Assembly (NCBI GenBank): GCA_054600435.1
Contig: BAAIJX010000077.1
Coordinates: forward strand, 50,530 to 70,529
DNA: 20,000 bases
Direction of reading: 5' to 3'
Origin: Neophaeotheca triangularis
Lineage: Eukaryota
Shown here one piece after another: positions 3,691 to 20,000 of this stretch. Position numbers and translations under genes: made by a program. The notes beneath the pieces were generated by a model. That model saw nothing but the letters and a program-made list of their open reading frames with translations, had not been told where the DNA came from and searched no databases. Position 1 is the first letter of the stretch, and every line of letters starts with the position of its first letter.

Positions 3691-5666
3691 TCAACCGTTC
3701 CAACTCCCAACAGCGCCTAGTGAAGCCCCGAGGCTTGTCGAAAACCCCTTCCCTGGAGTTCGAGAGCTCTTTCCAATGGTAACAGGAGACGATGCATGGG
3801 TAATACTTGCTCGCCTCCCAGGTTCCGGGAGAGGGCGTGTAGAATGGTCGGGCGAGTTTAATAATGGGTTGCCCGCGCTGGTCTCTTTGCCGTCAGCACT
3901 TCCGCGGAAAGATTTCCCGTCACCACAAGCAGGCGCGGAATGCTGCCGGGACACGAGAGCAGAGACTTCAGAAATGGTTGCATCCCCACGAGGCCCCTTG
4001 TTCAACTCTCCTTCCTCCTCGTCCCCGTCCTTAGCCACCTCTTCATCCTCCCCGAAGCCTTTGCCCTCAATGAGCCACCAAACAGGCACAGCGGCAGCCA
4101 CAGCAATCCCAGTCAGCAACCACCAGGGCGCAATAATGTAGCCCTGCTCGACACCCCAAGTGAAAACTGCTCCGGTGACCGCAGGACCCACAGCTCTGCC
4201 AATAGCAGAAGTAGAGACCGCGATGCCATTCAGAGTGCCCAAGACCCTCAAACTGCTCGCAGAGTTCGTCAACAAGATTGTCGAACACGGGAAACTGAAG
4301 ATCGCACAGAAGCCTTTCAGAACGTAGATTACGAAGCAAGTCCATTTGGCTGACTGCTGCGTTGGTAGGAGTGCTGTGAAAGGTACTAGAAAGTAAGTGA
4401 TTGGGAAACCGATGGCGCAGACTTTGAGGCAGTTGAGCGATCCGAAGCGGCGCACAAGGGGTGGGAAGAGCACGAGTTGCGTTAGCAAGCTGATGATGCC
4501 GTAGAGGGTGCTGAGGAAGCCAATCTGGGCTGAGGTCAGACCAAGGCCGCCGGAAAACTGAAAGGCATTGGTGGAGGAAGCATTGAGGTGGTTTTGGGGA
4601 TTTGAAGTTGAGTGGAGGCGCGGGTAGTGCATGAAGACTGCGAGGATCTGGTCGCAGACCAGAGTGTGTGCGGCGAGGAGGGTGTAGACGACGAGGTTGA
4701 TGACGGATTGCCGGTTGAGAACTTCGCGGTACGAGGGAGCGGGAAGAGAGGGTTTTCGAGTCTTGTGCGCAACCATAGTGTCTTCGTCGTCGGAGTAGAC
4801 TCGCTTGATGAGAGGGTCGGTCTCCCCATCCCCTTGCTTGGCTAGGTCCCGCAGAAGATGTAACAGCTCTCCTAGCTTAACGGCGTGATGGCTGATGCCA
4901 CTTGTAATCTTTTTCCCCAGCAAGATTCCGTAGTCTCGGTTATGTTTCTTGCTTTCCAGCGTCTCTTTCAAGAACAAGACTCCAGTCACTGACCCAATGC
5001 CGAAAAAAGCAGCCGAGACGATGTTTGGCAGCGCATAAGGGTACTTTACTAACAATCCACCTTTGCCTCCCATCTCTTCTGGCTCGAGTCCCAACGGATT
5101 CGCCAAGACGCCTCCAAGTATCGGTCCTAACACGCTGCCTACGTTCCATACCAAAGGCATCACGCTGAAAGCCCGGGGCTGCAACTCCTTGTATGGCACC
5201 ATTTCCGCAACAGTCGTCCTTATAATGCCTACGTTGCCTGCACCAGCTCCCATCAGCCCCCTCGCTATCAACGCCTGTGTCATGCCTGTGCTAAAGCCAA
5301 ATAGCAAGCTGCACATCAGTGTCGTTGTCAGTCCCAGTAAGATGGCAGGCTTTCGACCATAGCGATCCGACCCTCTGCCCCAGGGTATCCCCATAGCGGC
5401 TTGGCTGAGTGAGAAGACGGAGCCGCAGAAGCCTGCATATTTCGGAACGCTCGAGGCCGGGATGGAGAACGACTATATCATTTCCGGCAGGTAGGGGAAG
5501 ATGGAGGTTTGGGCTAAAGGTTCGGCGAAGCGGCAGACGGCTGGATCAATGAAACGGTTAGCATTGATGATCTCTGTCGACAGGGCTTATCTCGATTCTC
5601 ACCCAGAATGGCCAGCTGCTGGTAGGGTAGCTTTCGTTCATGGAGGCTGCTCTCCGAGGTGGCCAT
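3691..5666 (-). CDS. MFS transporter (DHA1/ZIFL1/YCR023C-like), 2 exons (5603..5666, 3691..5540), interrupted by an in-frame TAG at 5473-5475
   Basis: The spliced N-terminus reads MATSESSLHERKLPYQQLAILAVCRFAEPLAQTSIFPYLPEMI*SFSIP. MFS motif A (WGRGSDRYGRKP) and multiple hydrophobic helices are present. Intron 5541..5602 has a GTGAGA donor, GCTAAC branch and CAG acceptor. 637 codons if the stop is bypassed. Confidence 0.85.
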
Positions 5667-6145
5667 GATGAGTATGGATATGAGAGAGGCATAGGTGTAG
5701 CAAGGGTGTCCCTCCAACAGCAGGCATTTCAAGTAGCCGAAGTTGTTTGCTATCTATGTACGATAGGGTACGGTAGGGTTAGTCACACAGCCTCATGCAC
5801 AGCCCGCAGTCAGATTGCCAACGAGGTGTTCAAGTAGGTGCAGGAGGTACCTGCCTTCAGGTCTTGTCACTGTGTAGATGTGGGGTTTATCGTTTGGCGT
5901 GGCATGTGATAGGCATATCGGTCCGTTCAAGCCGTTGTGGATCTGGACTGCTGGATCTGGAGATATCGAACGACATGCCATTGGATTGTGGTGACTACTT
6001 TCTCATGCACTCTTCCTGTGATACCCAAAGCTTCAAGAATAAGACTTGAGTTCCTTTGGATGATATCTAAAGCAGAGCTTCTCATCTCTTACGTGATATT
6101 GTGCAGTCTTCCACGGTGGTGATGACAACCTTTACCGACCTCCAT

Positions 6146-6484
6146 CTACGCAAAGCAACCGCGCGACAGTGGAACCACTCTCACCCACAGCATCACCATC
6201 AACCCTCCAAAATCCACAAAGTGAACTGGGCCCTGGTCTTGGCCTTGAGGCGGAATTACCGCAGGCAGAGCGATATGATTGACCACGTCATTGTCATTCG
6301 TAAGGACCAAATCAATGCAGACTTGGAGCCCGTGGACAGCGGAGTCCATGTCGTAGTAGCTGGATGCGACACACGCGTCCCAATTAGCGCCGCTGTCGTA
6401 AGACTCCGCGTAGCACCTGTCGTAGCGTTTGTTGTTGCTGCCGATGTTGCCGGGATTCCAGTGAGTTGAGGAAGTGGGCGGCAT
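6146..6484 (-). CDS. small orphan protein (112 aa, MPPTSSTHWNPG...LSRGCFA)
   Basis: A canonical 48-nt intron 6491..6538 (GTAAGT...ACTAAC...CAG) ends 6 nt before the ATG at 6484. The ORF has C-ending codon bias and stops at TAG 6146-6148. Confidence 0.5.
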   Translation of the reverse strand: MPPTSSTHWNPGNIGSNNKRYDRCYAESYDSGANWDACVASSYYDMDSAVHGLQVCIDLVLTNDNDVVNHIALPAVIPPQGQDQGPVHFVDFGGLMVMLWVRVVPLSRGCFA

Positions 6485-7347
6485 CTTGAGCTGTGAGCTG
6501 TTAGTTGTGCTCTGGAAGGTCTTGAGAGAAACACTTACTTTCCAAATAGTTTGTGTTGCATATGATGAAGAGTGTGGTTGGTGGTGAGTTCGAGCACCGA
6601 CGGCCCGGCGTAAATGGTGCTCAGTCAGCGCACAATCCTCACGTTGAACGCAGCCGCGAATAGCGTTCTCACACAGACAACGTTTCGCCTCGTCTAAGAC
6701 CACAGCAAAGCTTGGTATTCTCTCTTAGAGGCTTAAACATCCACGACATGCTCGCCATGGGAATTGGTGTGTGTTCTACCGTAGGTATAGCTATGCTGAG
6801 AAGGTTCTTGTATCGTCTTCAGTTGCCTGGATATTCGTAAGGCAGCGGGACGTTGTCTGCGAACAAACATCGGCTCTCGTTACCAAAGATGAGCTCACAC
6901 TACTATCACGGTGGACATTGATGAAAAGAGATTTGCACTGGTCAATTGTGACTACTGATTTGACGCATCCACACTCTGCTCCCTCAACTGTCCCCGCCCA
7001 TTGCAAGTTGTATTTTCCGTGCTTCATGCGACACCACCCGTCCCAGTATACTGCCTTCTTGCTCACCCAGTCCATTCATGCGCCTGTGTATCCCGGACGT
7101 TACCACTCACTCAAACGGTCATAGCCAGCTCCTCCGCCATGGGCGCTCAATCAAACGAAACGCACAGAAGTCATCCTGCGTCTGTCCAATTGTGTCTCAT
7201 GGCAGATGCTTTGAACTCACCTAACGTGCCGAAGTCTGGATCCATCTGCGTGCAGTTGGAGTTGTCGTAGATCTGCAAGACCACTATTAGCAAAGAGACA
7301 CCAAAGGTGCGTTCATTAAAGCAAGAAGGGGGGGAGGGAGAGGGGTC

Positions 7348-7431
7348 GTAGTCAGACGAAAGATGGTTGGATGCCGTCAGCGCGCCATTGGCGCTCAGTA
7401 TGAAAAGCACTCATTGCTGTCATCACGTAGA
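7348..7431 (-). ncRNA. intronic box C/D snoRNA, double guide (25S Am817/snR60-type site and a U26-type site)
   Basis: Box C GTGATGA (7420-7426), D' CTGA (7395-7398), GCGCC/GGCGC internal stem, box D CTGA (7352-7355). The D guide is complementary over 11 nt to the conserved LSU sequence CGAAAGAUGGU. The D' guide is complementary over 12 nt to LSU AUGAAAAGCACU. Lies inside intron 7273-7464. Confidence 0.85.
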
Positions 7432-7969
7432 AAGAGGGAATGAGGGGAGATGGTTAAGACTCACCACCTGATCCTTTGCTGTCGTCGTTCCAAGGAGCTT
7501 TCTGCTGCGCTTCGATCGTCTTATCCACAGACGCGACTTTAGCAGGGTAAACCAGTCTAGGCTTCTTGTTGCGTATGTGTGCGAAGTTGCCGTTTCCTGA
7601 GGGTCAGCCCAGTTTTGACCAATCAGAGTTAGCAAGAAGCTCGCAGCTCCGAACGCGGGTCATCCTTGCGGAACGTAGAAGGACACCGACCTTGCGCATC
7701 GATCGGACGATGTCGTTGAGCCCGCCAGACGTCCATATCTTTTCTGGGGTATCCTATGACCTTGCTCTTTCTGCTTCGTACGGGGAATCGTTAACGCGCG
7801 GATGCGTACGTGTGAGTGATGTTGGTGTTTTTGAGCCTTGCGAACACTGCTTGACAGAAAAACTCGATCAATCCGAAATTCTGCGTCTTGAGGTAGCTAC
7901 ACCTGTCGAAATGTTTGTTGTCAGCAAAGAACTTTCGACGTCAGTCTGGCAAAAGGACAAGACAGGGCT

Positions 7970-8062
7970 CGCATCTCAGACACCGCCCGATATCGCACTT
8001 TTCATGCGGATCTCGCGCTTCATTAGAAGCTCAGTCGTTGGGGTTTTGTCATCATCGATAAC
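7970..8062 (-). ncRNA. intronic box C/D snoRNA with guide to the 18S decoding region (snR70/U43 region)
   Basis: Box C ATGATGA (8049-8055), D' CTGA (8031-8034), box D CTGA (7976-7979), short terminal stem (TATC/GATG). The 10-nt guide CGGGCGGTGT is complementary to the universal SSU sequence ACACCGCCCG. Lies inside intron 7903-8089. Confidence 0.7.
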
Positions 8063-8631
8063 GCAAAGGGGGATAGTAAAGGTACTTACAAGTATCTTTG
8101 TCTAATGACCATCCTCATTTCCAGAAAAGACTTGCGTGATCTCTGTCCCTCTTGGTCTTGCCGTTACACTGAAAGAGGTACTTTGGGGTCTGTTGATTTG
8201 ATCGTCGCGTTGTCATGGGTTGCTAAAATGCTTCAGCAAAATCACGCGCCTTGAAGATGCAAGAGCAATGTACCTTGAGTATCCAGACCGCGGAAGTGGA
8301 GCCCTGCGAGTTTGGTAGTCTCGTCGGAAGATCGTTGACGTTGCCTCTAAGCGCGGATCCATGGGCGTAGGGAAAGTGAAAACGGGTTCTGGTGATGGGG
8401 CGTGAGTCAGCCTTTGCTCTTCAGGGATGATGGAAGCGAAGGGTTAAGTGCCCTGCTCTTTCTTCCGAAGCTTCTGCGGTACTGGCAGTTATTCGGAGGC
8501 TTTAGGAGCGGATGGATTGTGCACGCTTTCCAGATAGGCGCAGACGTTGCGATATCTTTGGTGGTCTAGACGAGATGTGTTAGCAATGCTGATTTAGTTT
8601 GATTCAACAGAAGCTGGCGGCGGCAAGCTAA

Positions 8632-8741
8632 GCTTTCAGAAACTAACATCTTTTTTATCTCCGTAAGTGCATCGCTCATTGCGCTGGCTGTCTGCCCGTA
8701 GGTGTTGACGCCGCACTCGATAATTTGTATAATCACAAAGC
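8632..8741 (-). ncRNA. candidate intronic box C/D snoRNA (possible 18S helix-45 complementarity)
   Basis: Variant box C GTGATTA (8730-8736), box D CTGA (8636-8639), GCTT/AAGC terminal stem and possible D' CAGA (8691-8694). Lies inside intron 8566-8773. Confidence 0.5.
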
Positions 8742-8897
8742 AGAAAGGGATCAAATGAACAAAGTACACTCACTAGGCTTTTTCTTGTCACAATCCAAGC
8801 TCGTGAGTCACCGGAAGCTCTCTTGTTTGTAGGAATTGGAAAGGATCGCAGACCATGTCGACGGTTCGTGGGAAAGGTCATAGCGACGGAAAGATAA

Positions 8898-10338
8898 GAC
8901 TGATGGTCGATGGCCCATCCTCAGTCAATCGTGCGGCAGCTCTCTGTGTGACGCGACCGCCCCATCTGTGATTTGTACCTTGTTAGCTAGAACGAGAAGG
9001 CATGAACAGACCGGAGCTCACCATCGAATTCTTCACTCCACTTTTCTCGGACCAAGGCTGCTCCAGCTGAGCGGGAGCGATGATCATCTCTGGTGACTTG
9101 AGGCCCGCCCACCTCAAGCCTGCGGCAGCCCTTGCAAAGAGCACGTACGATGCTGCCGCCCCACTGGAATCCTGGAAAAGTCAAGGGCGTTAGTACATCA
9201 TTGAGCCGTCGGCATGAAAAGAGAACTCACTACGAGTAGGAAGGGGCCCGCCCACCACCATCCATACGACAGCCCTGGCCCAAAGGACGCAAAAGCTCGC
9301 TGTCGCCCCACTGGAATCCCTAGGCAACTGTTAGCTTTCGAACGTTGCTTGTTGGAGGAGACTCACCTCTGTTGTCACTTATCAGACTGGGAGTCCGTCC
9401 CCAAGTGGCTGGGGTCCCGCCCACCCTCAGCCGTGCGGCAGCCCAGAAGCTTTTTGCTGCCGTCCCGCTGTCTGTCGAAGTGTCAGACTGCTCTTGCTCA
9501 GGGGGGGGACACGTACCTATTTCGCAAAGCTGACACACAGATAGTCTGAGGGCCCGCCCTCCCTCAGCCTGCGGCAGCCCAGAGAACGTTCAGCTGCCGC
9601 CCCGCTACCTGTAAAAGTGTCAGAAGCTTTTCGGGGAGGAGACTTATCAGGTTCCTTGAAGTCGACCAGAAAAGATGGTCTGAGGTCCCGCCCACCCTCA
9701 GCCTGCGGCAGCCCAGAAAGCATTCAGCTGCCGCCCCGCTACCTGTGAAAGTGTCAGTAACTGCTTTTCAAAGGGGAAGCGGACGTACCTGGTATGAGGC
9801 AAACGACACACACTTGAATGAGGGCCCGCCCACCCTCATCCTGCGACAGCCCAGAAAGCATTCAGCTGCCGCCCCGCTACCTGTGAAAATGTCAGCAACT
9901 GCTTTCCAAAGGGGAAGCGCACGTACCTGGTTTCAAGAGACGCACACTTGGATGAGGGCCCGCCCACCCTCATCCTGCGACAGTCCAGAAAGCCCTTCAC
10001 TGCCGCCCCGCTCCCTGTAGGAATGTTAGTGCACTCACCTCGCCTGGCTGAGGTCCCACCCTCCCTAGCCCGCGGCAGTCCATGAAGCCCTCTTCTGCCG
10101 CCCCGCACTCACCTCGTCTGGCTAAGGTCCCACCCTCCTTAGCCTGCGGCAGCCCAACTGCTCGACGCTGCCGCCCCGCTGCCTGTGAAACGTGTCAGCT
10201 AAGAGTGCCTCGCTGAGTGAGATTCGGGTGAGAATACTGACTGACTTTGGATGCAGACGAAGCTGCGTTTGGAAGAGGGCCCGCCCACCCTCAACCATGC
10301 GGCAGCCCAGACGCTGAATGCTGCCGCCCCGCTGTTTT
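8898..10338 (-). repeat. tandem array of about 11 diverged exon+intron modules (about 134-150 bp period), each with two hairpins
   Basis: Recurrent minus-strand consensus CAG|...GGGGCGGCAGC-N13-25-GCTGCCGCA-GGCTGAGGG-TGGGCGGG-CCCTCAG...|GT. Acceptors at 10339, 10183, 10015, 9881, 9743, 9609, 9472, 9320, 9172 and 8966, plus one unit without its own intron at about 10039-10106. Confidence 0.95.
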
Positions 10339-10457
10339 CTGTGTGCAGCATGTTAGCGATGACCGAGACAGCACTGCAGTGTAAGACTTCCCTCATTGGA
10401 GCTATCAGCCGCCGTGTGGGCGTTGTGTTGGAACGATGGCGTGATGGGTTGGGAAGT

Positions 10458-10833
10458 CTGATGAGCGAGGAAAAATTAGCGAAGAACAGACTGCTCGAAG
10501 GGAAGGGAAAAGGGGAGGGTAATGAGCACCTGGGCCTGAGCAGAACTCAGACTTTGTTTGGTAGCCGGTCAGACTGAAACAATGTTGGCGGGTCGTTCTC
10601 GCAAGCGGTGGGGCAAGACTATTGCGCAACGATTAGCGAAGAACGAGTTGTTCGACCAGAAAACGTGGGGGGGGGATGAGCACCTGGGCTGAGCCAATGG
10701 CTCAGCAAGCAAATGGTCAACTTGGTGGGTAGCCTTATGGGGTGCTGATGGGCGGGTGCGACGGCGAGGCTAGGTGTCTGCATGTAGTTATTGAGTGATC
10801 TCGTGGTCAACGTTTGAAGGGAGGGTTGAGTAC
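10458..10833 (-). repeat. second family of 2-3 duplicated exon-intron units
   Basis: Plus-strand ATTAGCGAAGAAC...ATGAGCACCTGGG(C)CTGAGC occurs at about 10476-10551 and 10632-10706. A related GTACTC..CCCTCCC donor lies at 10833. Confidence 0.7.
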
Positions 10834-13800
10834 CTAGGCCATGGAGTGCGAGACATGCCATGACCAGGTGGGCATATGGTCACTTGAAACGTCGGATGTG
10901 GTGAGGTGTTGATGATTGTCGATGCTTATGGGAAGGTATGTTAGTAAGAGTCTATTCAGCAAAGGTATGGAAGGAAGGTTATGTGAGGATGTGTCAAGAG
11001 ATGAAGGCATTGGGTGTGTTTGATGTGAGGTGAAGTATATGTCAAGGAAGACGTGATCAATGTCATACCATGTGTGGTTGCTGCAATGGTGTGTCGATGG
11101 TAGGCGAAGGTGGTATGGTAGAGACAGTTGTGTAAGAGAGTGGAGGTGAGGAAGTTGTCGAATAATGTTGGTTGTTGGTCGATGTCGAAACTATTTAGAG
11201 GAGTGGGAGATACAGGTCAGCCAGCCGAGTTTTGTCAAAAAGCAAGTGGTCTATGCTTTTCGCTACCACTCCGGTGTGCGTTTGAAAGTGGGACTGTCGA
11301 AACCAGTGGGACGTGTTTGCCTTGGCGGCAGCAAGGCGGCGGTATGGTATGGTCTGAAGAGTTGCCGTATACGCGTTGGTGTACCCTATATTGCTCATGG
11401 ATCGACGTGGTCGACCGACATGTTTCTACTGTGTGATATCCATTGGTTTGAACATCATATCCTGTCCCTGACAGACACCATTGTTGTGTTTTCCCCATTG
11501 GATCGCAAATAAGGGCTTCCCAGCCAGAAGTCTTGTACAGGGGAGGCTGCCTCAGGCTGGGGGGCCTCCCAGGCCGCAGTGAAGTTCACCAGGATAGTAT
11601 TATTGTCGGTGGGCAGCAATAATATCGCGCGAGTCTGATCTCCCCTGGAATACTAGGAGATAGACATAAGAGAACCTCACAAAGGTGCTCTGTTGTAGTT
11701 TTGCCGCCAGACGTACTCTTATGCAATACGCTGGCCTGTCTTACTAGAGGTTCCAACACGCAAGAGGAACGCTTGTCAAACACGCTCTCACTTATTCTCT
11801 CGTCTACCAGGGCGCTGATGTTGTGTGTTTGGGTCTTGTGGCCCTCACAAGATCGAGTGTATTGCACATAGAGCCGTTTGGCAGTACTCTTAACGACTCT
11901 CAGTGCGGCGCATAGTCTAGCTAATTGTCGTTGAAACGCGTCCCAACGTGCCCTGGGAAATATGGTACAGGTAATCAGTCTTTCTGGCGCGCCATGCTGT
12001 AACCATCTCGTATGAGGTCCAGAGGCAGAGAGATTTGGCCTTCTATTCGAAGTTGGAACGGTTTCAACCATTGAGTACGAATCGGAAAACTGAGGCCCAA
12101 CTGGCTATGATAGTACCACAAAATGCTGCATCCACCGGCGTTACTGGTGAGAGAAAAGCAATGCCGAACCAAGAACGTCAAGGTTCCAGACGAGCCGAAA
12201 CTGGCAAAGCAATGGCACAGTACAGCATGCCATCGCAATGATCCCCCTACGCACTCGCAACATCGACCTACCCAACCGCTATCGAACCTTTTTCACTTCG
12301 CCGAGACAAGACAGAGACTTTGGTGAAATGCAAGAAACAGCGCGTTTCAGTTCGCCTAGAAAATAGTAACGACCGTGCGCAAGGGGCTATTGTTTCCCTA
12401 CCTGGGCTACATTGATGGAAGAGACGGGCCTAGGGCGACGAGTACCGCATTCGCGACAGGAACTATTCTATACGTGAGCAAGAGGAGTCTACAGGCAAGG
12501 CCGGGCATATCGATCACAAACATCCCTGAGAATGGCAACTGGCGCTGCAGTAATGGCTGTTGCGGAAGGCTGGCAATGTGGCCGATCGTACGGTAGGTTG
12601 ACGATGCGAGCAGAAGAGCAATGATAAAGAACGGTCACTGAGTGTTGACTAGAAAGACGAGTACATAGCATCTAGTTCTTACGGAAGTATCGGGAGCACG
12701 CGATGACTTAGAGAAGCACCCGGTAGCATCGTTTGCTAGTTGCTGTATCAGCTTCCAATTCCAAGCCACAGGGCAGCTCTTTTTGCAGTACCGCAAGCTT
12801 GTATCTGACGCGTTCACGAGAGTTATCTGGTGAGATCAGACACAGCCCGTGGCAGACCCTTCGAGCCTTATCAACACTGTATCTTTGCCGTGAGCAGAAT
12901 GCCAAATCTTTCAATAATCTGCTTTCCGCCTTGAACTCTGGTTCACTTGCGCCAGTGCATCAGAAGAGCGAGCTGTTTTCGGGCTGACGAATCGACATCC
13001 TCAACAAACTACCAACAGGCCTCCACCGTTCAATCCATTGGATAGGGACCTCACGATGAGATCTTTTCAGTCAAGATGCGCTCCTCTGGCTTACACTAAT
13101 ACCTACACAGCTTTTCCCGCGCCGCGATCAACGTACAGGCTGGCCACGCGAGCTAACGATTCCAACCTCTCGAAACTAGAAGAGTATCTACCCAGTTAAC
13201 CAACGGGTCTAAGAATTTGGCGGCCATCGAGGTCTTCAAGAGCTTTAGGGTGATTCACAAGGCAAGCGATGTCTAAAGAGCTAAGAAAAGCTGGATCAGG
13301 ATATAAAAACGATGATAGAAGGAAGCTGATTGGATGTAGGCGGATGGTCACAATGGCAGGCAGATAACGGCAAAGTACTGCAGTGCTGTACTAGACTCGA
13401 GTCGAGCGTTTACATTAGCTCTTCTGGCCGGTCGAAATCTCTTCGCTAAGCGACGTCTCATCCGCGATTAGTCTGTGCCAAAATCAACGAGGGTCTACTG
13501 TAACGCTGGCAGTAGGGCTCGAGCTATTTTCTGTAGGTTTTATAGATGCTGAGCGACCGAGAGAGGGCAGTGGAAGAAACGTCTGTAGAGGCTATGGAGC
13601 AGCGAGGGTATGAAAGAATGAAGCATTGATTCTTCGGGGCAACAACACTGGCATTCAAATGAGAGCGAGCGGTTTGGACTGCAACGAGCCCCGCAAAGGC
13701 CTGATGTATGATCCGTCAAGGCTAGGAGCCCTATTCGCAACAGGAAAATCATCGGCTGTGGGTTGAGCTGAGAAGCCCTGACGAGTTTCCGCTGGGATTG

Positions 13801-14473
13801 ACGGCTTGCGATCGTCGACTGGAATACTTCATGAGCGCGTTCACTGGGTTTTATTCCTCGTCCAAGAGATTACATACGTTTGATAGCGCCGTTAGAACGT
13901 ACAAGGTAGACAGATACAGAAGAGACAATCAGGGAGCTATAAAAGGCGCTTGAGGAGAGTAAAAAAGAACAGAGAGGGCAAGATGCTTGGAAGCCTGACA
14001 GACAGGTGGAGACCGTTCGATATGAAGAATGAGGGACGAGGGTGGCTGATCACGTTTATTGAAAACAATCAATCGCCTGTTCTGTTGGACGGCGGTCTTT
14101 TCTAATTCGTACGTGAGCAGCGCTTGCCATCTCCGGCCCCTTAAGCATTGTATTCTAGTAGAATACTTATGGGCGTTAGAGTTTGCGGTGTGTGGCACAA
14201 GCTTTTATTCGGCATGAGAGACACAGAGGGCAAAAGAGACTCAAGTTTGGTTCACTTCAACGGACCGGCGCGGCGCGAGCTCCTCTTCACCGTCGTGTCC
14301 TTCTACGTAATAGGAGACAATATCGACCCGATTCTGTTCTGTCCAAACTGCCCAATGTATCTCCCAATCCACAGCATCTCTGCCAATCAACACCAGCTCT
14401 TTTCTCCAAATCATTCCCACCCAGATCTGCCAGCTCTCGCCACGAAATCCTGTGATCCTGTGATCCTTGAGAA

Positions 14474-14965
14474 CTACTTCTTCGTCAGCGCAAGTCCATT
14501 CAAGGCAACATCTCCTAGCCGTGTTATTCTTTCTCGGCCTTCCAAATTTCTTTCCAGAGAGTACATAGCGTGACGATGAACGCTGATGAAGCACGTTGTT
14601 CTTGCCCTATCCGTGGTATGCAACTCAGTACCGGTAGTACAATCGGTATGCTAACACATCTAATCTTCCTCAGCTCCAGCATTTGCTTGTCTGGCTGGTC
14701 TTGCTCGTTCTTCGTTCAGTGCCGGTCTTTTTTTTTTTTTTTTCTATGCGCTCCAATGCCCTGGCTCCGCATCCGCGGTGTCTCATCGATGGGTAAATAG
14801 GGTATTCATTTTGTCGTGCGGATACGTATGCCGGTAACTCGGAAGGCTCTGAGAAGAGGCGTGAATTCGTAAGCTCATGATGTCGACAACGGGGGTTTGG
14901 GAGCGCGGGTTGGGGTCGGAAGACATAGTGTGAGTAGTGCGCGGAAGCTGTGATGTCACTGGCAT
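14474..14965 (-). other. candidate small spliced gene or ncRNA (exons 14826..14965 and 14474..14606; 90 aa if coding)
   Basis: Possible intron 14607..14825 (GTATCC, internal A-run, TACTGAG branch, TAG). Upstream are a pyrimidine-rich leader (about 15050-15200) and a TTTAAATAAA element (about 15468-15477). No homology recognised. Confidence 0.3.
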
Positions 14966-16255
14966 TGTTGGCACAATTGGATAAAGGTCGTTGGCGTAGA
15001 CGATCGATGGGTTTTCGGTCGAGAGCCGCAAATATCAGCAGAGGGTCATCTCTGAAGCGAGACGGGAGCGAACCAAAAAAAAAATAGGGACGAAATCGAC
15101 GATACCAAGAAAAGAGAGAGCGAGATATACAGCAAAACAACTAAAACAACAGTATACAACAAATCCAAGAAATACCCTCCCAAAAATTCAAAAAGGGAGT
15201 TCAACTTCCAAAAGCCTCTACGGGAAACCCCACTCGCGTCCAATCGAACGTTCCAGCACGAGCACCAGCCCTCAAATCCACCCCGCCGCCCTTCTGCAGC
15301 AGTGTCTCCTCGACCTACCTGTAGTAGACCGAACCACTTCTCCGTCAATCCCAGGCCTCGTGTGTTCAATTTTCAGTGCAGGTACTTGGGTCATTGGGTG
15401 TACAGCAAAATCCAGCCCCACAAACGGCGAAGTCAAGCATCCAAACCCTGCCGGGCAGTCCCAGCAGTTTATTTAAACAGCCCAGCTGGATCAAGCTTAA
15501 ACATCCTTAGGTTCGGCACGCAAAGCCAGCCGGGCTTCGGGGGGGGGGGGGGCGGGGGGAGGGGCATTTTTAAAAGCCGCTTCGAGCGCCGGATGGGCGA
15601 CTTTCGGTGTTTCTACCTCATACACACGGCGGTTAGGGGTGGCAGCGTTTTCAAAGTGTGGAATGAGCTTGATACGGCACGAGTGCTTCGCGTGCGTTAG
15701 GTTGGAATGTAGCTAGGTGTAGGATCTTTGATGCTCTGCAGCGCCGGGAGCTGAGCTAGAAGGACATTGACGCTTTGCAGTGTGGTTAGGGTCGGAATTG
15801 GTGTTGTCTGTCTGACTTGGATTGAGGAAGACAACCCCTTTAGATTTCAATGAGTTGAAGGCGGGGATATCTTAGTCGCAATTCGGTGATGTGAGGCTAT
15901 TTATTTTCCCAAAGGTGACAGTCACTCACGCTGGCATATGATCAACATACGCGGAGGCGATATCGTGATGTCTTGCTGAGGCTTAGGTCGCAACTTTGGG
16001 AACATACATTATGATGCGGTTTCCGAAACAATATCTTACTACATAACGCTACGCTGGGAGCAGGGAGCGTCACATCAAAGTGAACACTAGTACACTATGA
16101 CCAACTACGAGGTCCTTTTTCGCTTCTATCATAGTCGTTGACAACGACCGCCTGCCTCCAACGCCTCGAACGCCGCGCTAACCCAAACACAATTGCCCAC
16201 CCAAGCCTTGCGAATTAGCCTGCAACTGCATCGTGAAGATGTCCGTAACCCTCCA

Positions 16256-17884
16256 TCATCTCAACTCCCCAACGCCCGCCGGATTCCTCTCCAACTCCTT
16301 CCTGCTCCCGCCAACCCCACGCCTTCTCTCCTCATCCCGCTTCACAACGCCATCCATGACATCCTGCCTAGGCAAAAAGTCGCTAACAACCCACGGCGCA
16401 TTCCTTACATATCTCAACTCCCACTCGATCTTCTTGATCATTTCTTCGATATCCTTGTCTTTGGTTTCGTTATTGTGCAAACGCGGGAATGAGGGGAAGA
16501 GTTTTCCATCGCCGTGGACGCGGCCGGAGAAAGCTTCCGGACGGGGCACGATGTCCATGGGAATGCTGTCGGGGAGGTTGTTCTGCGTCGTAAGAGCCGT
16601 TTCGTGACACCAGGCCCGCGCGACGTTGCGGGCCGTATAGCCGCCACCACCGAGGACGAGGAGAGGTAGGTTGTGTTTCTGCACGTATGCAAGGCATTCG
16701 CCGTGTTGGCGGATGTTGAGGTTGAACTGCCCGAGGCGGTCGCCGCCGAGACTGTCAGCACCGCATTGAAGGACGATGGCGGAGGGTTTGTAGGAGGCGA
16801 TTACGCGTCCTGTGACGGATTCAAAGAGGTGGCTGTATTGTCTGTCGTCTATGCCGGAGGGGATAGGGACGTTGAGGGCAAAGTGCTCTCCTACGGTGCC
16901 TTTGAGTCCGGTGTCGGAGAGGTCGCCGGTGCCGGGGAAGAACTTATGGCCGGTGTCGTCGTAGGGGCCGTAGCGGTGGAAGGAGAGGGTCATGACGCGG
17001 GGTTGGCGCTGAAAGGCTTCTTCCACACCATCGCCGTGATGGACGTCAATGTCGATGTAGAGGACGCGCGGCCAGACCTTGAGCATTTCTAGTATGGCGA
17101 GGACGATGTCGTTGATGTAGCAGAAACCGCTGGCTTCGGCTTTGTGGGCGTGGTGTAGGCCGCCGCTCCAGTTGATGGCGATGTCGGATTCTTTGGAGGC
17201 GAGCTGGCGGGCTGCTGCGAGCGTTGCCCCGGTATACATGAAGAGGTAGCTCGACATTCCGTCAAAAACCGGGCAATCCGCTCCGGGGCTTTTGCTGAGA
17301 TTGTAAGGCCCGAGGTCAACATTATCACCCTCATGCTTAGGGGGGATGGCTCTGTAAAACTCTGGACGTTCGCATAGTTTCTCAAAAGTCTGCGGGGAGA
17401 CTTGAGATAAGAAGTCGACATAGTCTGGGTCGTGAAAGGCGCGGACTGCATCCTTGGTGGCTGGCATAGCTTCGTGGGTAGTCATGGCGTACTGGAGGCC
17501 GTACGCGAGGACGAGATGTTTGGTCAAAGTAAGACGCCAAGGCTTCATCGGATGTGTGCGACCAAAGTGCATATTCTCTACTTGACTGTTGTAGTGGAAG
17601 GAAACCTTGTGGCCTTTGGGGGCGGTGATGCCATTTTCCTCTACATTCTGCATGATGCGCTGGCGAAGCTCTTGCTCTTTTGCCCATTCGTGGTCATCGT
17701 CAGTCATGGGTGGGGTGACAGTGCCGTTCCCGTTCAAGGGCGCCTCGACATCGTGGCCGTTGGGCATGTCTTGGTGAGACCATGGCGAACGGGCGTGGGA
17801 GGGTGGTGGATTGGGATTGCTGGGATGCCAGTTCTTGACTATCGAGTTGCGTATGTCGGCTCGGTTGTTGGTGGGGCCTGCCAT
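16256..17884 (-). CDS. HOS2: class I histone deacetylase, Hos2/HosA type (542 aa, intronless)
   Basis: Hos2-type HFGRTHPMKPWRLTLTKHLV. Intact catalytic motifs GGLHHA, SGFCYINDIV, YIDIDVHHGDGVE, FFPGTG, QCGADSLGGDRLG and GGGGYT. First in-frame ATG at 17884. Confidence 0.93.
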   Translation of the reverse strand: MAGPTNNRADIRNSIVKNWHPSNPNPPPSHARSPWSHQDMPNGHDVEAPLNGNGTVTPPMTDDDHEWAKEQELRQRIMQNVEENGITAPKGHKVSFHYNSQVENMHFGRTHPMKPWRLTLTKHLVLAYGLQYAMTTHEAMPATKDAVRAFHDPDYVDFLSQVSPQTFEKLCERPEFYRAIPPKHEGDNVDLGPYNLSKSPGADCPVFDGMSSYLFMYTGATLAAARQLASKESDIAINWSGGLHHAHKAEASGFCYINDIVLAILEMLKVWPRVLYIDIDVHHGDGVEEAFQRQPRVMTLSFHRYGPYDDTGHKFFPGTGDLSDTGLKGTVGEHFALNVPIPSGIDDRQYSHLFESVTGRVIASYKPSAIVLQCGADSLGGDRLGQFNLNIRQHGECLAYVQKHNLPLLVLGGGGYTARNVARAWCHETALTTQNNLPDSIPMDIVPRPEAFSGRVHGDGKLFPSFPRLHNNETKDKDIEEMIKKIEWELRYVRNAPWVVSDFLPRQDVMDGVVKRDEERRRGVGGSRKELERNPAGVGELR

Positions 17885-18440
17885 GGTCGCGGTATCATAG
17901 TGGGGATAATGTCCAGCCACCTTGTCACCCAAGCAAGATGAAGTGATGTGCGGTGCAATTGATTGACGAGAGGCTTTCAAGTCGTGTGGAAGTTCAGATT
18001 GTCCAACATCGACCTAGGCTAGGCTAGGTAGCTTTCGGACATGGATGTGCAAGGGCCATGCGGCTCGGCGGTTGAATGTCCCGATTCCTGGGGTAAAGCC
18101 CGCCTACTGGTAGTCCCTTGAAACCTCCAGGGTTAGGGTTAGCGCTGCCTTCGTGCTTCGGCCCGCTTTCCAGTGTCGTTCAGTCGTCCTTCACTTGCAC
18201 CTGAACTTTCCCAACGCGTGCAACGAATATTCATCAACAATACGACTAAGACACACGTGATTATCATCAAAAAAACAACATAGTACCCAGGGATCCCTCA
18301 TTGCCTGACCCTGCGTCTGAGCCGCGACTGAAGTCCTAAAGTGTCTTACAAGGGCATTGAGGACTCCCCCCGGCGCAACACCTCCACGGAACGAACAAGC
18401 CGAAAGTTGAGGTGGGCTTAAAAGCCTCCCTGGTGGCAAG
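17885..18440. promoter_or_regulatory. 556-bp divergent promoter region with a telomere-like motif
   Basis: Lies between the HOS2 (-) and YNG2 (+) start codons. Contains AGGGTTAGGGTTAG at 18129-18142 and (CTAGG)3 at about 18014-18028. Confidence 0.6.
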
Positions 18441-19831
18441 ATGAACGCCCCTGAAGATGCAGCTACCGTGCTTGAACAATTTATGCATGATGGTACGTAT
18501 CGATGGATACAAATGCCTTTTCCTGCTCGATTCAATTTACTAACTTCGTTGCAGTGGCAAACATCCCCGCAGAAGTCCAGCATCTGCTCCAGGAGATGAC
18601 GGCCAAGGACACTCAGATCGCCAATTTCAAAGTCGAAATCGACAAGAGAGACGCTGCCCTACAGAAATGGGTGCGGGTGAATGGTGGCCATGTACACAAC
18701 CCCAAGGAGGAACAATTTTCACGTTACGTGAGCGAGTGCTACGACCGCTGCGAGATCTTGCAGGCCGAGAAGCTGGGTTTGAGCGAAAAGGCCCTGTTGC
18801 TTCTAGAAAGGCAAATGAAGCGTCTTGATGTCGGCGTCAAGGGCTTGCAAAATGCCGACCTCTTCCCTACCGACTGGAACGGACCATCTCTTCTCAGCGG
18901 TACTGGAACAGGCCCGAACACCCCCGCCAGCGGCAATGGTTCAGGACAACTCCCACTCCAATCCATCAGCAGCAATGTAGGAGTCACAGCCGGTGCTCCC
19001 AGCCTTGCAAACGCCGCTCAAGCCCGCATGGCCCACGCCAATAACCGAACCGGCTCCGGAGCGGCAGGCGCCTCCACTCCTAGCAACGTCTCTCGCTCCC
19101 AACGCGAGGGCAGCTCCGACACCTCCAAACGACGCCGCCTCAATGCCTCTTTAGGAAACTTGCCCACGGCATCCTCCAGCCTCCGTCAAAGCTCTCTAGG
19201 CCCAGGCACCCCCAAAGCCGGCACCCCCTCCGGCACCGGGCCCTCCGCCAACAGCAGTTCCCGCGCCGGCTCAGCCCAACCCTCTCGCGCCCCGACCAAC
19301 AAAAAGGGAGCAACTACAAGCACCACGGCACCCCCGAACGCCCGCAAAACGGCCCCCCACCAAGCCCCCGCCACAAGCAACACGCGCAAACGGCCCCGGC
19401 CCTCCACGAGCACAACCACCACGACAACCTCCAGCAAAAACCCCAAAGACCGCCGCCGCACGCTCGCAACAACAAACACGGCCCGCAACACCCCGACGCA
19501 CTCCCTCTCCCCGACGCCTTCCTCCGCAGCCTCGGCCTCCCCAACCCCCTCTTCCCTGCACACGACCAAAACCCCCGCCAACACGCACGCCCAGCGCGGC
19601 GGCAACAGCAAAAACGACAGCAACGACGAAGAAGAAAACGACACGACGCTGTATTGCTACTGCAGCAAGGTCAGCTACGGCGACATGGTGTGTTGCGACA
19701 ACGACGATTGCGGGATCCAGTGGTTCCATTGGGATTGCGTGGAATTAAAGCGTGAGCCCGAGGGCGAGTGGCTGTGTCCAGATTGCCGCAAGTTGCCGCG
19801 GGGCAAGATTAGGGTGAGCAGGGAAGATTAG
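18441..19831 (+). CDS. YNG2: ING-family PHD-finger protein, Yng2-like (NuA4 subunit), 2 exons (18441..18492, 18555..19831), 442 aa
   Basis: Spliced N-terminal ING domain MNAPEDAATVLEQFMHDVANIPAEVQHLLQEM. Intron 18493..18554 (GTACGT, TACTAAC, CAG). C-terminal PHD YCYCSKVSYGDMVCCDNDDCGIQWFHWDCV...WLCPDC. Confidence 0.88.
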
Positions 19832-19855: not shown

Positions 19856-19896
<41 letters not shown>

Positions 19897-20000
19897 GGGG
19901 GTTTGGGGGGGGGGTTTTGGGGGGTTTTGGTTGGGCTGGTTTTTTTGTTGGGGTGGGTGGTGGGGGCGATGGGGGGTTTAGGGTGGTTTGTGTTGGGGGC
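19856..20000 (+). repeat. G39 homopolymer followed by a G/T low-complexity tract
   Basis: G run at 19856-19894, then irregular G4-9/T2-7 blocks just downstream of the YNG2 stop. Confidence 0.9.

Follow-up and report, generated by a model that had tools for sequence, protein, structure and literature searches.

The window analysed here is a 20-kb stretch of nuclear fungal DNA from Neophaeotheca triangularis. Between a gene for an MFS transporter and a gene for a histone deacetylase, it contains a tandem array of eleven short units on the minus strand (8900-10338), with unit sizes of 73-199 nt. The units keep a common core and a set of splice signals under constraint, the stems formed by the core covary, and the array lacks an open reading frame (ORF). 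The favoured interpretation is that the array is the body of an unannotated, lineage-restricted and spliced non-coding RNA gene on the minus strand; the chances of this are judged to be evenly balanced.

The array was delimited with different methods. Tandem Repeats Finder reported it at 9416-10018 with a period of 134, 4.4 copies and 78% matches, and the repeat search found a 30-nt core in 11 copies from 8913 to 10308 (family D3). A covariance model was built from the array's own units and run over the window. It recovered exactly the 11 units, all on the minus strand and with 52-85 bits; the next best match in the window scored 11.8 bits, and no further copy of the unit, of the kind that a transposon or dispersed repeat might leave, was found in the 20 kb. 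A previous inspection of the letters by themselves (the sequence-only reading) had counted about 10 modules. The model extended this count by an eleventh, decayed unit at 8900-8967; unit 3 has no acceptor and falls inside a 98-nt intron.

The anatomy of the unit is regular. Each unit starts 5-13 nt past an acceptor-like YAG, followed by a GGGG run, hairpin 1 (H1), a linker of 1-3 nt, hairpin 2 (H2), an unconserved tail of 6-72 nt and a spacer. H1 is formed by the stem GCGGCAGC/GCTGCCGC, an 8-bp GC clamp, around a loop of 12-25 nt whose sequence is free. H2 has a stem of 6-9 bp, differing among the units, around the loop (T/A)GGG(C/T)GGG. The constant H1 stem with a variable loop, and the conserved H2 loop on unit-specific stems, had both been noticed before and were reproduced here; all six hairpins quoted at that time yielded the expected sequences at their positions. 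The core of the unit is about 60 nt long. Units 4-7 constitute a young array (134-138 bp) with a core identity of 87%, whereas units 1, 8, 9 and 10 are the old units. In the decayed unit 11, which is possibly the last exon, the G-rich loop is gone and the inverted repeat GACTGA..TCAGTC is retained. The coordinates of all features are listed in the table.

Table. Features of the array, its upstream repeat and the flanking genes (all on the minus strand; positions in the window; exons and introns as predicted from the splice signals; model match, match to the covariance model).
Feature	Position	Stems, loops or splice signals	Remarks
Unit 1 exon, 93 nt	10246..10338	H1 arms 10320-10327 and 10299-10306; G-rich loop 10284-10290	Model match 10266-10334, 78.2 bits
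Intron-like spacer 1, 63 nt	10183..10245	GTCAGT ... GCTGAC ... CACAG	Donor +3 C is non-consensus
Unit 2 exon, 70 nt	10113..10182	H1 10167-10174 and 10146-10153; H2 GGCTAAGG/CCTTAGCC 10120-10144	
Intron, 98 nt	10015..10112	GTGAGT ... ACTAAC ... CTACAG	From unit 2 donor to unit 4 acceptor; encloses unit 3
Unit 3	10039-10112, core 10041-10108		Own acceptor absent; following spacer just 24 nt; model match 67.5 bits
Unit 4 exon, 88 nt	9927..10014	H1 GCGGCAGT/ACTGTCGC; H2 GGATGAGGG/CCCTCATCC 9950-9975	Loop-closing pair of H1 compensated
Intron-like spacer, 46 nt	9881..9926	GTACGT ... GCTGAC ... CACAG	
Unit 5 exon, 92 nt	9789..9880		Model match 85 bits
Intron-like spacer, 46 nt	9743..9788	GTACGT ... 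ACTGAC ... CACAG	
Unit 6 and spacer	9609..9742, core 9673-9741	Branch TCTGAC and acceptor TTTTACAG kept	Consensus donor absent
Unit 7 exon, 92 nt	9517..9608	H2 CTGAGGG/CCCTCAG 9546-9567, loop AGGGCGGG	
Intron-like spacer, 45 nt	9472..9516	GTACGT ... TCTGAC ... GACAG	
Unit 8 exon, 105 nt	9367..9471		
Intron-like spacer, 47 nt	9320..9366	GTGAGT ... GCTAAC ... CCTAG	
Unit 9 exon, 89 nt	9231..9319	H1 GCGACAGC/GCTGTCGT 9266-9306, 25-nt loop	H2 degenerate
Intron-like spacer, 59 nt	9172..9230	GTGAGT ... ACTAAC ... TCCAG	
Unit 10 exon, 150 nt	9022..9171	H2 GGCTTGAGG/CCTCAAGTC 9095-9120	Register shifted, matching indels on both arms
Intron-like spacer, 56 nt	8966..9021	GTGAGC ... GCTAAC ... CACAG	
Unit 11, decayed	8880..8965	H1 GCGGTCGC/GCTGCCGC	Model match 8900-8967, 52.2 bits
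Second small repeat, upstream	10475-10535 and 10632-10689, within 10458..10833	CAG followed by GTGCTCAT ... CGCTAAT ... YAG	Families D12 and D13
MFS transporter gene	3694-5472		Pfam match
Histone deacetylase gene	16259-18013		Pfam match

The spacers between the cores carry splice signals on the minus strand: a donor (GTACGT, GTGAGT or GTGAGC), then a branch site (G/A/T)CT(A/G)AC, then YAG, over 45-63 nt. A loose donor/branch/acceptor pattern was found in 7 of the 10 spacers when the minus strand was read and in 2 when the plus strand was read; among 500 dinucleotide shuffles the number of matching spacers averaged 0.17 and never exceeded 2. Under the strict pattern, 5 of the 10 spacers still qualified when read on the minus strand and none when read on the plus strand. 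Across the whole window the strict pattern has 10 matches, and six of these lie in the 1.1 kb of the array, all on the minus strand; one of the four matches outside the array is the true intron of a neighbouring ING-type gene. The signals of the array resemble the true spliceosomal introns of the window, that of the MFS gene (63 nt, GTGAGA..GCTAAC..CAG) and that of the ING-type gene (61 nt, GTACGT..ACTAAC..CAG). Units 4, 5 and 7 share recent ancestry, and the spacer signals there are not independent. In the old units, however, the three splice signals are kept though the spacer interiors barely align (identity 0.56 versus 0.49 when shuffled); units 8, 9 and 10 preserve them as GTGAG(T/C), (G/A)CTAAC and YAG. 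Unit 6 is apparently missing 16 nt, which in unit 8 hold the donor GTGAGT; its nearest GT is GTCTCC, which would give a 99-nt exon and a 35-nt spacer.

A similar separation was found within the exons. The core identity among the old units is 0.70, compared with 0.51 in shuffles, whereas the identity of their exon tails is at the level of chance (0.35 versus 0.36 in shuffles). Therefore constraint, or a process mimicking constraint, is on this sequence comparison confined to the core and the splice signals.

Pairing in the stems was scored on a MAFFT alignment and on a model-fitted alignment of the units. Standard pairs occupy 89.7% of 185 cells, and 6 of the 17 pairs change on both sides. The observed count of pairs changed on both sides was reached by 1 of 500 and 3 of 500 shuffles on the two alignments; the paired percentage and the covariation score were matched by none. 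Sliding the 3' partner by 1-3 columns reduced the pairing to 29-49%. As a control that preserves the relatedness of the units, 555 other column pairs of the same alignment were taken in which the commonest pair is also complementary. Variant cells were compensated on both sides in 24% of cases in the true pairs versus 3% in these controls, and the observed 9 compensated cells were reached in 0 of 5000 resamples. The covariation proposed in the sequence-only reading thus exceeds the shuffled, the slid and the re-paired-column controls.

The individual changes also follow the two hairpins. The H1 arms are paired in 96.6% of cells while the length and sequence of the loop vary, and the compensatory H1 variants described earlier were seen again as double changes (G-C to A-U in unit 9 and C-G to U-A in unit 4). 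In H2, C-G changes to A-U by two transversions in units 4 and 5, and G-C changes to A-U in unit 2; in unit 10 the register of H2 is shifted via matching indels on both arms. Repeat-induced point mutation (RIP) is indicated by a TpA/ApT ratio above about 0.89, a (CpA+TpG)/(ApC+GpT) ratio below about 1.03 and an excess of transitions. The values obtained here were 0.79 and 1.39, with 66 transitions versus 78 transversions; the changes are not RIP-like, and a transition bias of this type, raised earlier as a concern for the covariation, was rejected.

No relative of the array was found among known RNA families. In Rfam 15, searched over 8000-11500 on both strands with E up to 10, no family reached its threshold, and the best scores, SNORD50 (17.1 bits versus 42) and mir-1538 (17.1 bits versus 78), were not near it, which agrees with the earlier view of an undescribed RNA. 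A self-cleaving ribozyme array and a snoRNA cluster were considered, and Rfam supports neither of them. A metagenome scan with a pattern of the H1 arms and the G-loop gave 32 loci with one match each, of which 29 have a GC content of at least 0.60; none of the 32 has unit-like flanks or arrays, and they were treated as chance matches. Full-text searches of open-access papers and preprints found no precedent for the loop motif, for a fungal spliced long non-coding RNA (lncRNA) made of tandem repeats or for exon duplication in a fungal non-coding RNA. Helitron ends and precursors of pheromones or RiPPs were considered and dropped since the spacing, the loop sizes and the stop codons were unsuited.

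The surroundings of the array are poor in genes. No recognisable gene lies in the interval 5500-16250 (about 10.7 kb). Among its 59 stop-to-stop ORFs with a length of 75 aa or more, Pfam was silent for 57 and recognised just two, which belong to the MFS and deacetylase genes at the edges of the interval. A stretch of this kind is unusual for a fungal genome, and the array lies at its middle. ESM Atlas gave no credible match for the flanking ORFs 7551-8102 (plus) and 11589-12104 (minus), two of the longest, which look unlike real proteins. Beyond the deacetylase gene, the translation of 18491-19831 suggests a PHD-finger/ING-type gene. In the second exon of the MFS gene an in-frame TAG is present at 5473-5475 (minus; ...YLPEMI*SFSIP), and the remaining ORF of 593 aa is intact, which points to a nonsense mutation, to a pseudogene or to an erroneous base. 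Immediately past the ING/PHD-finger ORF, Tandem Repeats Finder reported a run of about 60-70 G with few T interruptions (19856-19924, plus), which may be genuine or an artefact of the assembly. Another, shorter run of G is located at 15539-15556.

Some smaller elements were observed in and near the array. The second small repeat at 10458..10833 is possibly an upstream part of the same transcript; its donors are weak, so that its membership is uncertain. Short palindromes precede these upstream intron-like repeats, for example GCTGAGCC-ATT-GGCTCAGC around 10687-10705. In seven units the H2 5' arm together with the G-rich loop is 76-82% complementary to a C-rich minus-strand segment, CCCGCCCATCAGCACCC at 10740-10756 (inverted repeats I4 and I8-I12). 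Provided that the transcript includes this segment, it might serve as a pairing partner within the molecule. Moreover, the exon tails of units 6 and 8 have in common the motif CTGATAAGT, a GATA-type site (9375-9388 and 9644-9655, minus).

As a spliced non-coding RNA gene, the array would have been built by repeated tandem duplication of one exon-plus-intron module. The locus would be transcribed, and splicing would join about ten modules into an RNA of roughly 1 kb with about ten copies of the loop (U/A)GGG(C/U)GGG. Such a multivalent RNA might act by binding a single kind of partner many times over; the partner would be either a protein that binds G-tracts or a C-rich RNA of complementary sequence. 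The function of a protein sponge or scaffold put forward in the sequence-only reading is an inference of that reading only.

Several observations weigh against this interpretation. The splice signals are broken in unit 6, which has lost the consensus donor, and in unit 3, where the acceptor is absent; both are signs of decay. The single register shift of unit 10 accounts for about 4 of the 9 compensated cells, which leaves about five independent events, and beside these stand roughly a dozen uncompensated mismatches. The 28 imperfect cells comprise 9 G-U, 6 A-C (G-U on the plus strand) and 13 others, so the wobble pairs are not asymmetric and the earlier statement of a G-U majority among the imperfect pairs of the minus strand did not hold. 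Compared with dinucleotide shuffles, the exons are only modestly stable: the mean fold z-score is about -0.95 for the minus and -1.25 for the plus strand, and just 1 of the 11 minus-strand exons, that of unit 2 (z = -2.65; 0 of 200 shuffles as stable), beats all 200 shuffles. In all 11 units the fold of the minus strand is the more stable one; since this is true of its shuffles as well, the lower energy is an effect of composition. A minus-strand preference from wobble pairs or folding energy was thus ruled out, and the strand is assigned from the splice signals alone because neither G-U pairs nor folding energy distinguish the strands.

The possibility of a coding gene in which every exon encodes one protein repeat, or of its recent pseudogene, was also considered, for example a Gly/Ala/Arg-rich repeat protein or a repeat-peptide precursor; it is improbable. 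Consistent with coding, the distance from GGGG to the G-rich loop is equal modulo 3 (41 or 53 nt) in 7 of 10 units; in units 3-7 an H1 loop longer by 1 is offset by a linker shorter by 1, a single inherited event that hints at frame compensation; and short peptide motifs recur, such as GSGAAAECFLGCRR(L/M)RVGG. The best splice model, however, consists of exons of 93, 70, 88, 92, 99 (poor donor), 92, 105, 89 and 150 nt and a terminal piece. The lengths given earlier were reproduced except for the 95-nt exon of unit 6, for which there is no consensus donor. The spliced product of the model has stops in all three frames, the intron phases disagree among the units, and the H1 loop lengths (12, 13, 14, 22 and 25 nt) are out of step with codons; the earlier argument that units out of frame encode no protein is therefore supported. 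Dynamic programming over alternative sites found a longest open path of 232 aa with consensus-like donors, but this path requires differing donor and acceptor choices in near-identical neighbouring units; when any GT donor was allowed the path grew to 452 aa, as flexibility alone would yield. The arm GCTGCCGC would be read as Ala-Ala-Ala in units 1 and 8 but as Gly-Cys-Arg in units 4-7, which indicates that conservation acts on nucleotides. Word-indexed protein searches found no relative, either for the read-through of all three minus frames (proteins of 49-2000 aa) or for a 156-aa plus-strand ORF (proteins of 85-273 aa), and the ORFs of the array have no Pfam match. When the ORF through unit 1 was used as the query of a full HMMER search, one match was obtained, P0001, with 27% identity over 64 aa. 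It was rejected as repeat-inflated: the stretches score 22-29 bits each and the E-value is summed over 5 weak repeats. From its sequence, P0001 (850 aa) appears to be a trypsin-like protein in which the motif TWAAGW recurs. In the three real genes (MFS, deacetylase and ING-type) the long ORFs are free of indel breaks, so that assembly indel errors are an unlikely cause of the broken frames in the array. Mutually exclusive exons were ruled out because the exon lengths are unequal modulo 3.

Two other alternatives were considered. The array might be a neutral G-rich tandem repeat, a long-period minisatellite derived from a duplicated exon-intron fragment; its palindromes would be kept mutationally, for example by template switching in quasi-palindromes or gene conversion between units, and any transcript would be noise. 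This is unlikely, though a number of observations fit it, including the youth of units 4-7, the broken signals of units 3 and 6, the modest fold z-scores and the strand asymmetry of the G-runs (54 runs of at least 3 G versus 14 on the other strand); the matched indels in H2 of unit 10 are also the kind of change that template switching makes. On the other hand, neutrality or gene conversion would not separate the core from the tails at a scale of 30-60 nt, and in the old units the 60-nt core and three splice signals persist, although similarity in the tails and spacer interiors is down to the level of chance. Between their conserved arms, the H1 loops are free to diverge. A comparison of the window with the human hypervariable minisatellite core, as given in PMC9069542, yielded 0 ungapped matches with 3 or fewer mismatches. 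It is very improbable that the array is a DNA-level element, i.e. an array of GC-box/GCGGGG zinc-finger sites or of hairpin-G-quadruplexes (hairpin-G4s) that control a neighbouring gene or local chromatin. GGGCGGG-type and GCGGGG motifs do occur in every unit, and the hairpin-G4 schema G3-N11-40-G3-N1-G3-N1-G3 fits 7 of the 11 units, outside which no GGGNGGGNGGG site occurs on the G-rich strand of the window; hairpin-G4s are described as folding and affecting expression in human promoters (PMC8501965). But protein binding sites would not covary between the arms of a palindrome, an H1 spacing of 12-25 nt is unsuited to a dimeric DNA binder, the conserved splice signals would be left unexplained, and there is no recognisable gene within several kb.

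A variant of the RNA interpretation is that each exon is bistable, with an H1+H2 form and a G-quadruplex form, and that the RNA is a scaffold of about ten hairpin/G4 switches put together by duplication of exon and intron; this is improbable. In the quadruplex form, the invariant 5' GGGG would combine with the three G-runs of GGGNGGGNGGG, H1 would remain as a hairpin loop, and H2 would have to open. A bistable RNA could sense ions or helicase activity, or could gather a G4- or G-tract-binding protein switchably. It would explain the covariation of H2 together with the high conservation of the flanking G-runs, which the hairpin model leaves unpaired but which vary less than any other letters of the unit. 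The G4 model of ViennaRNA preferred the two-hairpin fold in 9 of 11 units and chose the quadruplex just for the two units whose H2 is degenerate (3 and 9).

Structured lncRNAs built from repeats, for example Xist and NORAD, are hardly known outside animals, and very few fungal lncRNAs are known to have a defined structure or mechanism. Should the array prove to be a spliced non-coding RNA gene, the origin of multivalent RNA through exon-intron duplication could be studied on it as a compact model, and selection on RNA structure would be shown within one locus. It would also be a tractable 1.4-kb locus in a haploid fungus, suitable for identifying the partner of the G-rich loop or for following RNA G-quadruplex switching in vivo. 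If the locus is untranscribed, it would still be a useful case of palindrome-preserving evolution in a tandem repeat.

The array shares some features with several known systems. Like the non-coding snoRNA host genes of fungi and animals, it would give a multi-exon spliced RNA without an ORF and with a functional unit once per exon-intron module; however, the conserved unit of the host genes is intronic, whereas that of the array is exonic and matches no snoRNA family. The fungal mitochondrial double-hairpin elements and GC clusters are also short and GC-rich, with two hairpins and many copies. These are dispersed, whereas the array is nuclear, located among genes with spliceosomal introns, strictly tandem and tied to splice sites. 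GC-rich minisatellites are G-rich tandem repeats with strand asymmetry as well, and their core, as given in PMC9069542, is loosely resembled by the loop if one gap is allowed. The array differs from them in its period of 73-199 bp, its diverged old units, its splice signals and its covarying stems. With respect to the hairpin-G4s, seven of the 11 units fit G3-N(31-40)-G3-N1-G3-N1-G3 with a long loop able to form H1; but the cases published in PMC8501965 are single DNA sites in human promoters, not exon arrays. The covariation of H2 in the array, moreover, argues for selection on the hairpin form.

Analogies can also be drawn with the repeat modules of animal lncRNAs. Like the array, the A-repeat of Xist has about 8-10 tandem, short, GC-rich cores with predicted hairpins, which serve in Xist as a multivalent protein platform. 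The Xist repeats lie in one exon with U-rich linkers, whereas the units of the array are separated by intron-like spacers; there is no sequence similarity between the two, and Xist is mammalian while the array is fungal. Sponge lncRNAs of the NORAD type likewise have duplicated units that pair a short motif with a hairpin, and multivalency has been proposed for them; the NORAD units are about 300 nt long, lie in a single exon and carry Pumilio sites, whereas those of the array would be exons of 70-150 nt with a G-rich loop. All in all, a spliced non-coding RNA gene with about ten duplicated, structured exons accounts for the locus better than the alternatives; its RNA would act in the manner of the Xist or NORAD repeat modules and fits no known family.

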